The position numbers were made by a program, and so were the translations under genes. A stretch of DNA of 64,000 nucleotides from Podarcis vaucheri. Its lineage: Eukaryota. A model generated the notes under the pieces. It saw only the letters and a list, made by a program, of their open reading frames with translations, did not search any database and was not told where the DNA came from. Of this stretch, positions 6,546 through 40,467 are shown one piece after another. The stretch lies in assembly GCA_965113315.1 (NCBI GenBank), contig OZ220369.1. One strand, 5' to 3'. The stretch's first letter is position 1. Every line of letters begins with the position of its first letter.

Positions 6546-6592
<47 letters not shown>
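6546..6592. repeat. (TA)n microsatellite; further tracts at 6951..6992 and 11946..12005
   Basis: Directly visible. Confidence 0.98.
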
Positions 6593-6598
<6 letters not shown>

Positions 6599-6948
6599 AA
6601 GGTACCCCTGCCCGAACGGGCCAGTCTTGACAGACTCTGGGGTTTGTGCGCCCATCTCACTCAAGAGGCCGGGGGCCAGCGCTGTCCGGAGACACTTCCG
6701 GGTCACGTGGCCAGCGTGACAAAGCTGCATCTGGCGAGCCAGCACAGCACACGGAACGCCGTTTACCTTCCCGCTGGTAAGCGGTACCTATTTATCTACT
6801 TGCACCCGGGGGTGCTTTCGAACTGCTAGGTTGGCAGGCGCTGGGACCGAGCAGCGGGAGCGCACCCCGCCACGGGGATTCGAACTGCCGACCTTTCGAT
6901 CGGCAAGCCCTAGGCGCTGAGGCTTTAACCCACAGCGCCACCCGCGTC

Positions 6949-6950: not shown

Positions 6951-6995
<45 letters not shown>

Positions 6996-7044
6996 GGTTT
7001 TGGTGTCTTCGGGTGTCTTCCCGTGTAAGAGTCGGGGTGTCTGT

Positions 7045-7082
7045 GCGACGTTTCGACGAGGTCTCACTCGTCATCTTCAGGC
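7045..7082 (-). ncRNA. Identical minimal hammerhead ribozyme motif in the left arm
   Basis: Reverse complement of 11824..11861. Confidence 0.75.
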
Positions 7083-7314
7083 TGGTGCTTTCGGCTTCTT
7101 GTTACTGGAACAGAGCAGAGTCTGGTGTTTGAGTTCCTATAAATACTGTTGAGGGGTGTGGTGTATAGCCTCCAACGTTCTGGGCAGAGAGGAAGTTCCT
7201 AGATTAGTGTGCCTTTTCTTCTTTTGTTCCTTAATTACTTGAGGGATATCTTGAGTGATTTCATGAGTGATATTCTGAATACCACTGGGTGGGTCATTAA
7301 GTGTAGATTAGTTG

Positions 7315-8344
7315 CTAAAGCTTTCGTGTCTTGACCTCTTGAGCTTGTGAAGAGTTTTTCTGAGAAGATGGCTGTGCTGCATTTAGTTGTGCTCTGGCTT
7401 GGCTTCGTGTATAGGGGCGAGCTGTGGTTTTGTGCCTTGTGCCAGCCAGATCTGTGTAGGGATTGCAGGGGGGTGCAGCATCCGGAGGTGCCACTATAGT
7501 TTGGCTACTGGATGGAGTCTGTAATATGTCTGTGGAGAGGGTCTGGGTTTGGGTCTGGTGTGGTTGATTGGTGACGGCGTTCTGTGTGCCTCTGGTTCTG
7601 GTGTCGGTTTTTGTGGGGAGGGCTAATTTCCAGATGTCTGGCAGGCGGGACGTGTCGTCACGCTTGTTCATGTTGTGAGGGTGTTTCTCTATCTCGATGG
7701 CTTCCATGATTATTCTCTTGTGGTGATGTTCCATGTTAAAGAGCAATTTGGAATCTGCAAAATTAATTTCGTGTCCTGTTTCTTTCATGTGTTGGAAAAG
7801 AGAGGAAGTTTTTTCTTCTTTTTTGACGGCATTCTTGTGTTCTGCGATACGTGCATTTATTCGTCTGTTTGTTTGTCCAATGTACGTGGCTGGGCAGACT
7901 TTGCAGGGTATTTCATAGACCCCTTGGTTTTCCAGCTGGATTTTGTCTTTTGGGTTTCTGAGGATATTGGCTATTTTTTGGTTGGTGCAGAAGGCTGTTT
8001 TGATATTGTGTTTATGGAGGATTTTGCTGATTTTGTCTGTAGTGCCCTTGATATAAGGAAGGAGGGCCATGCCATTGTTTTCTTCTGTGTCTTGGTTTTT
8101 GGGGGGTGTTTCTTTTTGGATTAGCTTTGTAACCCTGTTTTTCTGGTATCCATTGGCGATTAACACATTTGAGAGATTCTGTAACTCAGTTGTCAAGTGG
8201 TCTTTGTCAGCCAGGCGTTTGGTTCTGGAGATGAGAGTCTTGGCTACGGAGTTTATTTGTGCAGGGTGGTGGTGTGATTGTGCATGTAAGTAGCGGTTGG
8301 TGTGTGTTTTTTTCTGGTAGATAGTGTGTCCTAGGGAGCCATCA
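7315..8344 (-). CDS. Penelope-like element ORF fragment (end of RT, linker, GIY-YIG endonuclease), left inverted arm
   Basis: ORF 7315..8196 contains GVYEIPCKVCPATYIGQT...R...EH...H...E...N GIY-YIG motifs; homology continues to the junction at 8344. Confidence 0.9.
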
Positions 8345-8986
8345 ATACCTACATCCCGATGACCTACTTGTGAGCTTCGATGTTGTATCTCTCTTCACTC
8401 AAGTGCCCATTAATGAAGCCTTGACAGCCATTCAAAACAAATACAACCCCCCCAAATACATCCTGGACCTGACCAACCACTGCCTAACCAACACATACTT
8501 CATCCACAATGGACAAAGATACAAACAGATAGAAGGAGCACCTATGGGATCACCCCTCTCACCGGTCATCGCAAATTTGTACATGGAACACTTTGAAACC
8601 AATGCTTTAGACAAGTCAGAACACAAACCCAAACTTTGGCTCAGATATGTTGACGACACCTTTGTAATTTGGCCACACGGGAAAGAAAAACTAGATAGCT
8701 TCCTCACACATCTCAACAGCCTACACCCCAAAATACAATTCACTATGGAAATAGAAGACAACAACCAACTCCCCTTTCTTGACGTCCTAATCTACAAAAA
8801 ACCTGATGGCTCCCTAGGACACACTATCTACCAGAAAAAAACACACACCAACCGCTACTTACATGCACAATCACACCACCACCCTGCACAAATAAACTCC
8901 GTAGCCAAGACTCTCATCTCCAGAACCAAACGCCCGGCTGACAAAGACCACTTGACAACTGAGTTACAGAATCTCTCAAATGTGTT
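8345..8986 (+). CDS. Penelope-like reverse transcriptase, 5'-truncated and interrupted by an insertion
   Basis: SFDVVSLFT, GAPMGSPLSPVIANLYMEHFE, WLRYVDDTF, LPFLDV and TNRYLHAQSHHHP are PLE-type RT motifs. Confidence 0.93.
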
Positions 8987-10726
8987 TTTTTTTTTTATAA
9001 TCATATTTATTAAAATTTAACAGAGTAGAAAAGATAAAAAAGATAAAGAAAAGAAAGAAAAAGAGAGACTAGCTTAGACCCTTCTTTTCATAACCTTCTT
9101 TCTGGGACTTCCTCCTTCCCCTCCCGACTGTATTCCCCTTTCCCTAAGTTGGTTCCACAAGTTCTCATCCCCAAATTTAAGCCTAATATATATTACTCAT
9201 AAACCAATTTAAATTTACACAATCTTAACATCACTCCTCGTCTTATAATAAAACAAATTTTTCCCCCAAGATCAGCTCTCATTCCTTCCACGAGTTCCCC
9301 CTTTCTAAAAAAGGAAAAAACGAAAACATATTAGATCAAAGTTATAAAGAATATAAGATAGAATATATAGAAAAGTTCAAAAAATTGGTTACAAAGCCTT
9401 TGGATTCTAGGGTTCCCCCTCCCTTCCCCGGTTTTGATTCCCCATGTCCATTTGTCTGTATGTTGTCGGCCTGGAGATCTTAAGTCCACAGCCAAATTTT
9501 TCTCAGTCCATCTTGCCGGTTTCTTCAGATTTGGTTGTTTTAATAATATTTAACTTCATAAATCCAGTCTAATAGAGGCCTTTAATTTTCCTTAATCTTT
9601 TGTTGCTCCTCCCGTTGTTCTTTCCGTGTCGTATTTAGTCATTTACTCTTTTGCTTCTTGTTTTCTCCGGTTTCTGTCTTGTTCAGCTGTCAAAACATTC
9701 TTGTTTCAAAACTTAGTGTCTCTACAGAGGTTTGTTATTCAGGGACAAGGACTTACGTCCAGTTCCTTTCTTGCTTCAATAGAAGATTCTATTGTATTAT
9801 GGTCACCTCTGTAGACAAAATAATATTTCAGTTCTGCAGCTTTCCCAAGAGATAAGACCTATGCACATCCCAGAGTAGTTTTCCACATACGACACTTGTA
9901 ATGTCCCGAAACCCCTCTAGGGGGATTGCAATAACTTTGTATCCTCTAATCCAAAAGTCAATTTGTTGTTTCTTTTTCCCCGACAGTTTATATCCATATT
10001 TATATCAAATTGTAGCAAAATTAACCAGCAAAGAAAAACTTGTAGCAAAGTCCTCTTTATATTTTCCAGCTTTGACAGCTCCTTTGGCAGCTGTCAAATT
10101 CTCCATCTCTCTTCGCCAGGCTCTCCGAATCGCCCCGGTTCCCAGGGGGGGGGGTTGTCTTTTTCCTCTCACCCTCAACTCTTCTCCTCCAGCACAGTTC
10201 TTATAGTTCACATCGTGGAGTTAATAATTTTTGTCATCAATAAACTTCTGAATCGATCTTGGTTTCTCAGTCCTTGTTTTAGCATGTTTACAATCAGGGA
10301 GGGGACTGACTTCCTTTTTGGATCCCCTCCCGCTCGTGCCAAATCCGGAAAAAATTTTCTTTTTTCCTCCTTTTATGCCCGGTTACCCAATTACTCACGG
10401 GTTGTTGTTAATTGTCCGAATTTTCTTTGGAAGAAGCCAGCGCTCTCCGCCGGATGGCATGCGGCTGCGCCCGGCAGGGGAAGCGGAGGACTCAAAGCAC
10501 CACGCCACTCCCCGGCGCCCGATCCGTAGCCTTTAAAAAGGCTCCTTCACAAGCCGGGAGGGCGATAACGGTGCCAGCCGAGTCACCATGTCCACGGGAT
10601 CCGTTCCCGTGGTTTTTGAGGGTCCCCGCGTCGCCGGCGCGGTAGGACCCAACCCCTGCCGAGCCGACTCCCTCCGGAGCTCGGAGGGAGTCCGCCATTC
10701 GGCGATGGCGCTAACCCGGAAGTCTC
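8987..10726 (-). mobile_element. Non-autonomous L1-type retroposon nested in the Penelope element
   Basis: 18-bp TSD GAATCTCTCAAATGTGTT (8969..8986, 10727..10744), AATAAA plus A-tail on the minus strand, TGTT/AA target, GC-rich 5' end starting GAGACTTCCGGGTTAGCGCC...ATGGCGG, and no long sense ORF. Confidence 0.85.
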
Positions 10727-10744
10727 GAATCTCTCAAATGTGTT

Positions 10745-11591
10745 AATCGCCAATGGATACCAGAAAAACAGGGTTACGAAGCTAATCCAAAAAGAAACAC
10801 CCCCCAAAAACCAAGACACAGAAGAAAACAATGGCATGGCCCTCCTTCCTTATATCAAGGGCACTACAGACAAAATCAGCAAAATCCTCCATAAACACAA
10901 TATCAAAACAGCCTTCTGCACCAACCAAAAAATAGCCAATATCCTCAGAAACCCAAAAGACAAAATCCAGCTGGAAAACCAAGGGGTCTATGAAATACCC
11001 TGCAAAGTCTGCCCAGCCACGTACATTGGACAAACAAACAGACGAATAAATGCACGTATCGCAGAACACAAGAATGCCGTCAAAAAAGAAGAAAAAACTT
11101 CCTCTCTTTTCCAACACATGAAAGAAACAGGACACGAAATTAATTTTGCAGATTCCAAATTGCTCTTTAACATGGAACATCACCACAAGAGAATAATCAT
11201 GGAAGCCATCGAGATAGAGAAACACCCTCACAACATGAACAAGCGTGACGACACGTCCCGCCTGCCAGACATCTGGAAATTAGCCCTCCCCACAAAAACC
11301 GACACCAGAACCAGAGGCACACAGAACGCCATCACCAATCAACCACACCAGACCCAAACCCAGACCCTCTCCACAGACATATTACAGACTCCATCCAGTA
11401 GCCAAACTATAGTGGCACCTCCGGATGCTGCACCCCCCTGCAATCCCTACACAGATCTGGCTGGCACAAGGCACAAAACCACAGCTCGCCCCTATACACG
11501 AAGCCAAGCCAGAGCACAACTAAATGCAGCACAGCCATCTTCTCAGAAAAACTCTTCACAAGCTCAAGAGGTCAAGACACGAAAGCTTTAG
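10745..11591 (+). CDS. Penelope-like GIY-YIG endonuclease region, continuation of the RT ORF after the insertion
   Basis: Removing the insertion and one TSD copy restores LTTELQNLSNVLIANGY in frame, as seen uninterrupted in the left arm. Confidence 0.9.
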
Positions 11592-11823
11592 CAACTAATC
11601 TACACTTAATGACCCACCCAGTGGTATTCAGAATATCACTCATGAAATCACCCAAGATATCCCTCAAGTAATTAAGGAACAAAAGAAGAAAAGGCACACT
11701 AATCTAGGAACTTCCTCTCTGCCCAGAACGTTGGAGGCTATATACCACACCCCTCCACAGTATTTATAGGAACTCAAACACCAGATTCTGCTCTGTTCCA
11801 GTAACAAGAAGCCGAAAGCACCA

Positions 11824-11861
11824 GCCTGAAGATGACGAGTGAGACCTCGTCGAAACGTCGC
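11824..11861 (+). ncRNA. Minimal type I hammerhead ribozyme motif in the Penelope pseudo-LTR
   Basis: CTGAAGA (11826-32), T, stem II GACGAG/CTCGTC, GAAA (11852-55), CGTC. Stem III is reduced to the palindrome ACGT. Stem I has only about 2 obvious bp. Confidence 0.75.
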
Positions 11862-11942
11862 ACAGACACCCCGACTCTTACACGGGAAGACACCCGAAGA
11901 CACCAAAACCTGCATTCCTGTACCCGTGAAAATCTACGAAAG

Positions 11943-14287: not shown

Positions 14288-14642
14288 AAGGTAAAGGTAA
14301 AGGGACCCCTGACCATTAGGTCCAGTCGTGGCCAACTCTGGGGTTGCAGCGCTCATCTCGCTTTATTGGCTGAGGGAGCCAACATACAGCTTCCGGGTCA
14401 TGTGGCCAGCATGACTAAGCCACTTCTGGCGAACCAGAGCAGCGCACAGAAACACCGTTTACCTTCCCGCCGGAGCGATACCTATTTATCTACTTGCACT
14501 TTGACGTGCTTTCGAACTACTAGGTTGGCAGGAGCAGGGACCGAGCAACAGGAGCTCACCCCGTCACGGGGATTCAAACTGCCAACCTTCTGATCGGAAA
14601 GTCCTAGGCTCTGTGGTTTAACCCACAACTCCACCCGCGTCC
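14288..14642 (-). mobile_element. Sauria SINE
   Basis: Full-length; tRNA-like head and ACCTTT tail; similar to the other copies in the window. Confidence 0.9.
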
Positions 14643-16379: not shown

Positions 16380-17030
16380 GGGCCACATTTCCACCATCCA
16401 TTTAAAGCATTATTATACTACCTTAAAAGTCATGGCATCCCCCAGAGAATCCTGGGAACTGTAGTTTCAGGATGCTGCAAGTTGTTAAAGGTAAAGGGAC
16501 CCCTGACCATTAGGTCCAGTCGTGGCCAACTCTGGGGTTGCGGTGCTCATCTCGTTTTATTGGCCAAGGGAGCCGGCATACTAAGCCGCTGCGAACCAGA
16601 GCAGCACATGGAAACGCTGTTTACCTTCCCGCCAGAGCAGTACCTATTTATCTACTTGCACTTTGACGTGCTTTCGAACTGCTAGGTTGGCAGGAGCAGG
16701 GACCGAGCAATGGGAGCTCACCCCGTCGCGGGGATTCCAACTGTGGACCTTCTGATTGGCAAATCCTAGGCTCTGTGGTTTAACCCACAGCGCCACCCGC
16801 GTTATTAGGAGACCCCTATTTCCCTCATGGAGCTACAATTCTCAGAGCGGTTTAACAATCAATCCTTCTTCCCAGTGAACTTTGGAATTGTAGCTCTGTG
16901 AGGGAAACTGGGGTTTCGCGACGCGTCTGAACACCCTTAGCAAACTACAGTTCCCAGGATTCATGAAGGGGAAGCCATGACAGTTAAAGTGGTATAATAC
17001 ATCTCTAAATGTCAGGTATGCTTGTGGCCC
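16380..17030. mobile_element. Long palindromic (Harbinger-like) MITE
   Basis: Termini GGGCCAC / GTGGCCC and an internal palindrome; related copies at about 1285..1590, 23368..23640 and 62600..62760. Confidence 0.7.
16487..16802 (-). mobile_element. Sauria SINE, internally deleted, nested in a palindromic MITE
   Basis: Same family; the interrupted MITE resumes at about 16803. Confidence 0.88.
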
Positions 17031-17896: not shown

Positions 17897-18287
17897 AAAG
17901 GTAAAGGTTAATAAAGGTAAAGGACTGACAGTTAAGTCCAGTTGCAAACGACTCTGGGGTTGCGGTGCTCATCTCGCTTTACTGGCCAAGGGAGCCGATG
18001 TTTGTCCACTGACAGTTTTTCCAGGTCATGTGGCCAGCATGACTAAGTGGCCAGCATGACTAAGCCACTTCTGGCAAAACCAGAGCAGCGCATGGAAACA
18101 CCGTTTACCTTCTTGCTGGAGTGGTACCTATTTATCTACTTGCACTTTGATGTGCTTTCAAACTGCTAGGTTGGCAGGAGCTGGGAATGAGCAAAGGGAG
18201 CTCACCCTGTCGTGGGATTCAAACCACCGACCTTCCTATTGGCAAGCCCTAGGCTCAGTGGTTTAGACCACAGTGCCACCCGCGTCC
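17897..18287 (-). mobile_element. Sauria SINE
   Basis: Same family; imperfect TSD aattaaattaata / aatgaaattaata. Confidence 0.88.
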
Positions 18288-40116: not shown

Positions 40117-40467
40117 GGGACGTGGGTGGTGCTGTGGGTTAAACCACAGAGCCTAGGACTTGCTGATCAGAAGGTCGGTGGTTCGAATCCCCGTAGCGGG
40201 GTGAGCTCCCGTTGCTCGGTCCCAGCTCCTGCCAACCTAGCAGTTCAAAAGCATATCAAAAAACAAGTAGATAAATAGGTACCACTCCGGTGGGAAGGTA
40301 AACAGCGTTTCCGTGCGCTGCTCTGGTTCACCAGAAGTGGCTTAGTCATGCTGGCCACATGACCCAGAAGCTGTACGTCGGCTCCCTCGGCCAATAAAGC
40401 AAGATGAGCGCTGCAATCCCAGAGTCGGTCACGACTGGACCTAATGGTCAGGGGTGCCTTTACCTTT
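40117..40467 (+). mobile_element. Sauria SINE
   Basis: GGGACGTGGGTGGTGCTGTGG head, GGTTCGAATCC B-box, CCTTTACCTTT tail. Confidence 0.9.

Follow-up and report, generated by a model that had tools for sequence, protein, structure and literature searches.

A young non-coding retroposon family with L1-like ends and its ORF-bearing sister families in the lizard Podarcis vaucheri

The insertion and its internal features

The window, a stretch of 64,000 nucleotides from Podarcis vaucheri, contains a Penelope-like ORF at 8325–11591 on the plus strand, assigned from domain matches and ORFs, in which a reverse transcriptase domain (RVT_1, E 7e-13) precedes a GIY-YIG domain (E 5e-4, weaker than the Pfam cut-off). 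This ORF is broken in antisense by an insertion of 1.74 kb, which extends in minus-strand sense from 10724 down to 8987 and is flanked by identical 18-bp target site duplications (TSDs), located at 8969–8986 beside its 3' end and at 10727–10744 beside its 5' end. On the minus strand, a poly(A) tail of 10 A (8987–8996; two further A belong to the TSD) follows an AATAAA polyadenylation signal (9006–9011), and two extra bases, GA (10725–10726), lie between the 5' TSD and the element start. The target of the insertion was TT/AACA. In the Penelope element's inverted sister arm (6991–8344, minus strand), this site is present once and uninterrupted, within an open frame; the two arms show 6 differences over 1189 bases and 1 over 183. 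The TSD, the A-tail with AATAAA, the TT/AA-like target and the nested position missing from the sister arm, all described in the initial annotation, were thus recovered. The Penelope-like element (6991–8344 and 8325–11915) is itself young: its inverted arm is 99% identical, and each outer end is bounded by a (TA)n microsatellite. A ~350-bp interspersed repeat, presumably a Sauria-type SINE, also occurs several times in the window (6591–6946, 14292–14640, 16486–16802, 17908–18286 and 40118–40467).

The longest sense ORF of the insertion comprises 68 aa from its ATG (72 stop to stop). An upper limit of about 84 aa had been given for it; the lack of a long frame is correct, and the value of 84 aa is found in older copies. 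The 68-aa frame, which begins at an ATGGCGG motif, was rejected as a gene because it is not kept in a sister family (family B, described below). An antisense stop-free frame of 202 codons (9921–10529, plus strand) was rejected as well, since its length varies among copies from 95 to 241 codons stop to stop.

The element starts at 10724 with GACTTCCGG, and the region 10692–10724 (minus strand), from GACTTCCGG to ATGGCGG, has the form of a lizard L1 5' terminus. CTTCCGG is located at 10716–10722 and ATGGCGG at 10692–10698, as first annotated; we take the former to be an ETS-like and the latter a YY1-like motif. The 5' 325 bases (10400–10724) form a CpG island with 64% GC, 35 CpG and an observed/expected ratio of 1.04, in agreement with the CpG-rich 5' end noted before. 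Beyond that annotation, the two motifs turned out to be part of a published terminus, as the accessible part of the anole study gives GACTTCCGGTGN8ATGGCG for the clade-1 L1 5' consensus (PMC5381506), which our sequence matches.

A splice-donor-like motif, GTGAGT, lies at about +325 (10392–10400, minus strand) and is conserved in the element family, the sister families and autonomous L1s; loci L103, L104 and L230–L259 show it besides the window copy. A role in transcription, or in splicing of the promoter into host genes, is conceivable. No spliced retrocopy was found at this conserved donor, as 0 copies were changed directly after it. An identity as a spliced L1 retrocopy (SpIRE) was rejected, because the donor motif is intact and the two internal deletions seen in the family have microhomology junctions. 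Two further motifs on the minus strand are a short inverted repeat directly upstream of the former start codon described below (9912–9924), similar in sister families, and TGACAGCTG within a near-palindrome (10088–10096), conserved across the superfamily and presumably TALE-homeodomain-site-like.

Neither an A nor a B box was present in the element, a tRNA search of it found nothing, and an Rfam search gave chance matches only, all under the gathering scores. There are 19 sense-strand runs of at least four T, which argue against transcription by Pol III. With no A/B box, no tRNA or Rfam head and internal T runs, a Pol III SINE was rejected. The same observations, together with the CpG island and AATAAA, point to Pol II.

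Size, completeness and age of the family

The copy number was analyzed in the 1.6-Gb genome from which the window derives. Nearly the whole element was matched at 97–100% identity at 39 loci (40 of 3,096 candidates scored), and exact-pattern searches found at least 129 5' ends and at least 304 3' ends, counts that are lower bounds. Reversed-pattern controls gave 0 matches, and chance is therefore excluded as the source of the family. The 3' part of the window copy bears a private change and a subfamily deletion, so that an exact pattern based on it found no other copy. Among 60 exact 3' ends listed on three contigs (C1, C8 and C10), 53 retained the 5' end and 7 were 5'-truncated, so that the full-length share in this set is about 88%. 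When 40 of the 72 listed 5' ends outside the near-full-length matches were sampled, 36 belonged to copies of about 1.74 kb, two were internally deleted with TSDs, and two matched only to position 870. The internally deleted copies (L131, 798 bp; L157, 864 bp) have their own TSDs and microhomology junctions, and deletions of this type are possible seeds of shorter bipartite families. In the other two (L151 and L152), the same large insertion interrupts the copy at position 870 and the 3' ends lie about 8.5 kb downstream; they are likely to be one duplicated locus.

TSDs of 12–23 bp (median 18) were found in 91 of the 96 copies with both ends. The target profile is TT/AAAA-like, with T at position −2 in 60%, a pyrimidine (T or C) at −1 in 90% and A at +1 to +4 in 55–79%. 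Extra 5' bases containing G were seen in 52 of the 91 copies with a TSD; such bases are readable as a copied cap. As judged from these sequences, the family bears the marks of target-primed reverse transcription (TPRT) of an L1-mobilised retroposon, namely TSD, A-tail and TT/AAAA-like target.

A tree of 66 full-length copies showed successive subfamilies, with the window copy in the youngest. Its nearest copies differ from it at 1, 4, 6, 6 and 7 bases, the closest at 1 of 1738, which confirms the recent activity proposed earlier, and identity is graded from 99.9% to 75% across subfamilies. In all 66 copies the longest sense ATG ORF was 68–134 aa, and an intact ORF1 was found in none. The initial exclusion of a tRNA SINE and of an intact HAL1 was upheld. 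Contigs of four sequencing runs with three organism labels cover the element, one thinly over the body; these contigs are uninformative on presence/absence polymorphism, because the empty site is also supplied by other Penelope copies. At one locus (L031; G000:C17:89014656-89018245), a family-B element lies antisense inside a copy 99% like the window copy, which indicates that both families were active very recently.

ORF-bearing sister families and L1-like ends

Family B is a related element of 1,843 bp (L031:5901–7743), which was found interrupting one copy of the element family. It has at least 40 copies at 98–100% identity, and a 201-aa ORF from about +822 was present in 11 of 12 checked. 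A protein search for the product of this ORF, hereafter the orphan protein, gave 232 matches among 150 scored candidates; of 30 loci fetched, 22 were 1.7–1.8 kb long, with a TSD and a 5' end that could be recognised. The resulting superfamily, about 1.8 kb long, shares a 30-base 5' motif with 1,253 exact occurrences in the genome. Of the first 100 motifs listed, on contig C1, 40 belonged to the window-element type, which extrapolates to about 500. From the other 60, 33 were sampled; all 33 matched the orphan profile, 26 had a frame of 175–201 aa, and 0 matched the ORF1 profile. The other superfamily members carry an ORF of 175–204 aa, and the window-element family is colinear with them from end to end and nested within the superfamily. 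The retroposons at L031:5901–7743, L200–L229 and L267–L299 are L1-ended and ORF-bearing and include young families at 98–100% identity.

In a tree of 5' sequences with L1 UTRs as the root, built from only ~460 bases and carrying FastTree support values, the ORF-less lineage grouped with L267, which has an intact 175-aa ORF, and with L279 and L288 (support 0.99). Identity between the window copy and L267 is 74% for the 5'UTR, 55% for the former ORF and 59% for the 3'UTR. The segment of the window copy at 9464–9894 (minus strand) is the decayed relic of the orphan ORF, with the start codon lost, stops, frameshifts and deletions. The oldest ORF-less members have ACG where L267 has ATG and still score 27.6 and 20.7 bits with the orphan profile; younger members lost three more bases at the former start, and indels run through the frame in all members. 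At the protein level the relic in the window copy matches the orphan protein with E 0.13, which is not significant alone, and the case is made by DNA colinearity and the older copies. On this sequence comparison, the window-element family likely descends from ORF-bearing sisters by gene loss, and the ORF-less lineage appears to have kept spreading after losing its start codon and frame.

For comparison with autonomous elements, genomic L1s were located via the endonuclease family. Many intact ORF2 frames of 1,249–1,258 codons with reverse transcriptase and endonuclease domains were found. A Pfam PF02994 search of the genome gave no L1 ORF1 match, but its control was likewise without a match anywhere, which makes this result uninformative. 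In many of the L1 loci fetched, from both lineages seen, ORF1 is preceded by a start like GACTTCCGG. The first 340–570 bases of the element have 63–67% identity to the 5'UTRs, ahead of ORF1 and ORF2, of one autonomous lineage (best E 6e-44), and the superfamily profile matches autonomous-L1 5'UTRs with E 2e-68. We take 10228–10724 (minus strand) as a 5'UTR of L1 origin that likely acts as an internal Pol II promoter. The 3' region (8987–9150, minus strand), G-rich and then T-rich, is homologous to an L1 3'UTR; it is 65% identical over about 165–168 nt to the sequence behind the ORF2 end in L105 (E 7e-11), and the superfamily profile matches L1 3'UTRs in L105, L190 and L104.

Across 50 autonomous L1 loci, the superfamily DNA profile matched only at positions 2–540 and 1593–1796 of its 1797, with no match over the ORF1 and ORF2 coding regions, and the middle of the element, about 1.1 kb, matched no L1. 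None of 40 sampled 5' ends ran on into ORF1 or ORF2, none of 40 3' ends followed ORF2, and none of 40 superfamily 5' ends matched the ORF1 profile. A closely matching autonomous partner was not found, the termini of L1s being only 60–67% alike. An autonomous L1 identity was rejected, as ORF1 and ORF2 are missing. Among the L1s, loci L063–L096 comprise at least two divergent intact lineages, one with 5'UTRs of 1.4–1.9 kb; their ORF1 is missed by Pfam, and its alignment matches human ORF1p in PDB. One contig of the genome assembly G000 (C41, 41 Mb) is strongly enriched in L1 copies and near-identical repeated loci, which suggests a heterochromatic or sex chromosome with segmental duplications.

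The orphan protein bears on whether the element is a decayed ordinary HAL1, that is, a half-L1 with a dead ORF whose sisters encode an L1 ORF1p shortened and diverged beyond recognition. We consider this unlikely. The architecture is that of HAL1 (L1 5'UTR, one ORF, no ORF2, L1 3'UTR), the orphan ORF starts at about +820, close to the ORF1 start at about +925 in a related L1, and a weak BLAST match to the ORF1 coiled coil was obtained (E 0.17). An AlphaFold2 model of the protein (mean pLDDT 48, pTM 0.22) is confident only for an N-terminal helix, residues 3–39, which would also fit. However, profile–profile comparison by HHalign of the orphan alignment with 11 lizard ORF1s gave a probability of 0.2%. 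In PDB, the orphan alignment found nothing better than E 0.1, whereas the ORF1 alignment, as a positive control, reached human ORF1p with E 1e-9. Only 11 of 1.84 billion database proteins matched the orphan protein, all of them unnamed Logan records or Podarcis hypothetical proteins, and none is an L1 ORF1p by length or name. The missing DNA-level match over L1 coding regions at the 50 loci also speaks against this origin. No Pfam match of 16 orphan members came near the cut-off, and the best ESM Atlas match (score 0.78) was rejected as a lead. The homologues share the N-terminal helix and a basic C-terminal motif, with a variable middle. From these comparisons, the orphan protein is not recognisably L1 ORF1p.

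Selection on the orphan ORF was analyzed from sister copies. The dN/dS values of family B against nine of ten other copies were 0.25–0.36, and those of all 55 pairs 0.24–1.0. The mean for the orphan ORF was 0.46 (15 pairs), as compared with 0.59–0.91 for other frames and 0.54–0.72 for the UTR, and 29 of 40 indels in the orphan ORF were in frame, versus 31 of 192 in the UTRs. Because the sister copies were picked by protein search and open frames, both the selection and the indel counts are biased toward open frames. These values point to moderate purifying selection on the orphan ORF.

Origin, mobilisation and relation to known elements

Two other explanations fared far worse. That the element arose from an L1 by simple deletion, as a bipartite fusion of 5'UTR and 3'UTR that never had its own gene, is largely refuted and very improbable: both ends are L1 UTR-like and shorter, internally deleted copies such as L131 and L157 do arise, yet the ~1.1-kb middle unlike any L1 can be aligned to the ORF-bearing sisters across the regions of their start and stop codons. 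Repeated formation of processed pseudogenes from a single host gene or lncRNA under an exapted L1 promoter, for which the ladder-like subfamily tree would be compatible with few source loci and related ORFs are annotated as hypothetical genes in Podarcis lilfordi, is equally improbable given the graded subfamilies, the copies with an exact L1 5' terminus, an L1-type 3'UTR as their end and, mostly, a retained promoter, and the parallel amplification of several sister families. A processed pseudogene of a spliced host mRNA, in particular a single-copy one, was rejected on the near-full-length matches at 39 loci and the at least 304 copies in subfamilies.

The data directly support the copy number, the TSDs and their target preference, the L1-UTR-like ends, the lack of a coding frame and the end-to-end sister homology. 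From the TSDs, ends, missing frame and sister homology, the family is with good confidence a non-coding, L1-mobilised parasite, likely transcribed by Pol II, neither a SINE nor a classical HAL1, and descended from sisters with an orphan ORF between L1-like ends. The initial view of a non-coding parasite that moves by TPRT and has a Pol II-type promoter inside it is supported in every testable part, and what it had lacked, besides the published L1 terminus, is the place of the element as an ORF-decayed branch of the orphan-protein superfamily. We infer that an ancestor joined an L1 5'UTR, a reading frame other than ORF1 and an L1 3'UTR. In one branch the start codon would have been lost and the frame would have decayed, the promoter part diverging least. 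Pol II would likely transcribe the element from the L1-type internal promoter, and polyadenylation at AATAAA would yield a capped RNA. L1 ORF2p would reverse-transcribe this RNA in trans by TPRT at TT/AAAA-like nicks, probably with ORF1p. In human cells, according to the available part of one study, Pol II transcripts also required ORF1p (PMC2666806), so that ORF1p is probably borrowed by this family too. The short length would leave most new copies full length with the promoter kept, and successive subfamilies could follow.

A wider reading, which we offer tentatively and at somewhat less than even chance, is a lacertid class of L1 parasites in which an L1 promoter and 3'UTR surround a selected orphan protein of 170–215 aa that would help its RNA to capture the L1 machinery. 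The present family would then be a protein-less cheater branch with hundreds of copies, possibly the first ORF-less bipartite element of the L1 clade, with a graded record from coding to non-coding.

To our knowledge, known non-autonomous L1 derivatives retain ORF1p. HAL1 of mammals is a non-autonomous L1 derivative encoding ORF1p in the accessible text of two sources (PMC5753468, PMC5786205); it is like the element in its L1 UTRs, absent ORF2 and TPRT marks, and unlike it in that the element family is ORF-less and the sister ORF is not recognisable as ORF1p. The family thus has L1 UTRs without ORF2, and no ORF in 66 of 66 copies, and was not assigned to HAL1. ORF-absent bipartite LINEs (RIME, NARTc, Bov-A, RTESINE/WALLSI3, Vingi derivatives and R2 SIDEs) are reported, in the part of Kojima 2018 at hand, only from the RTE, Ingi, Vingi and R2 clades, and are thought to be transcribed by Pol II and mobilised by the parent LINE (PMC5786205). 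They likewise are multi-copy, with LINE 5' and 3' ends and no protein. In contrast, the present family is L1-ended and 1.74 kb long, and a decayed non-L1 gene, not a deletion junction, makes up its middle; an origin by internal deletion close to a partner LINE was rejected on the 1.1-kb non-L1 middle and the 60–67% likeness of the ends. The anole clade-1 L1, as far as described in the consulted part of Boissinot and Sookdeo 2016 (PMC5381506), shares GACTTCCGG...ATGGCG, the CpG island, a T-rich 3'UTR, AATAAA and the A-tail. Unlike that L1, the element family has no ORF1 or ORF2 and is 1.74 kb long. The accessible part of a 2017 vertebrate review adds nothing on such elements (PMC5381603).

Neither the family nor a design with an orphan protein between L1 ends was found described in the titles and abstract starts listed by literature searches, and subscription journals, Repbase Reports or supplements may hold a description. 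The family is a real, young, non-autonomous L1 parasite, and appears new as judged from these listings. Anole clade-1 L1s measure about 6 kb. SVA and LAVA of apes are non-coding elements of 1.5–2 kb, mobilised by L1 in trans and thought to be Pol II transcripts. Unlike in SVA and LAVA, no Alu, VNTR or ERV parts were recognised in the element, and its promoter is the L1 5'UTR itself.

A long, non-coding, L1-ended element that is about 88% full-length suggests efficient mobilisation of a Pol II RNA in trans by lizard L1. The paired ORF-bearing and ORF-less lineages offer a testable system for what makes a good L1 substrate RNA and for what the orphan protein contributes. With their CpG islands and splice-donor-like motif, the ~1,250 intact 5' ends are candidates for mobile promoters. 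The sister ORFs are already entering annotation as hypothetical host genes: the only named homologues of the orphan protein are from Podarcis lilfordi, where pipelines have annotated related ORFs in this way.
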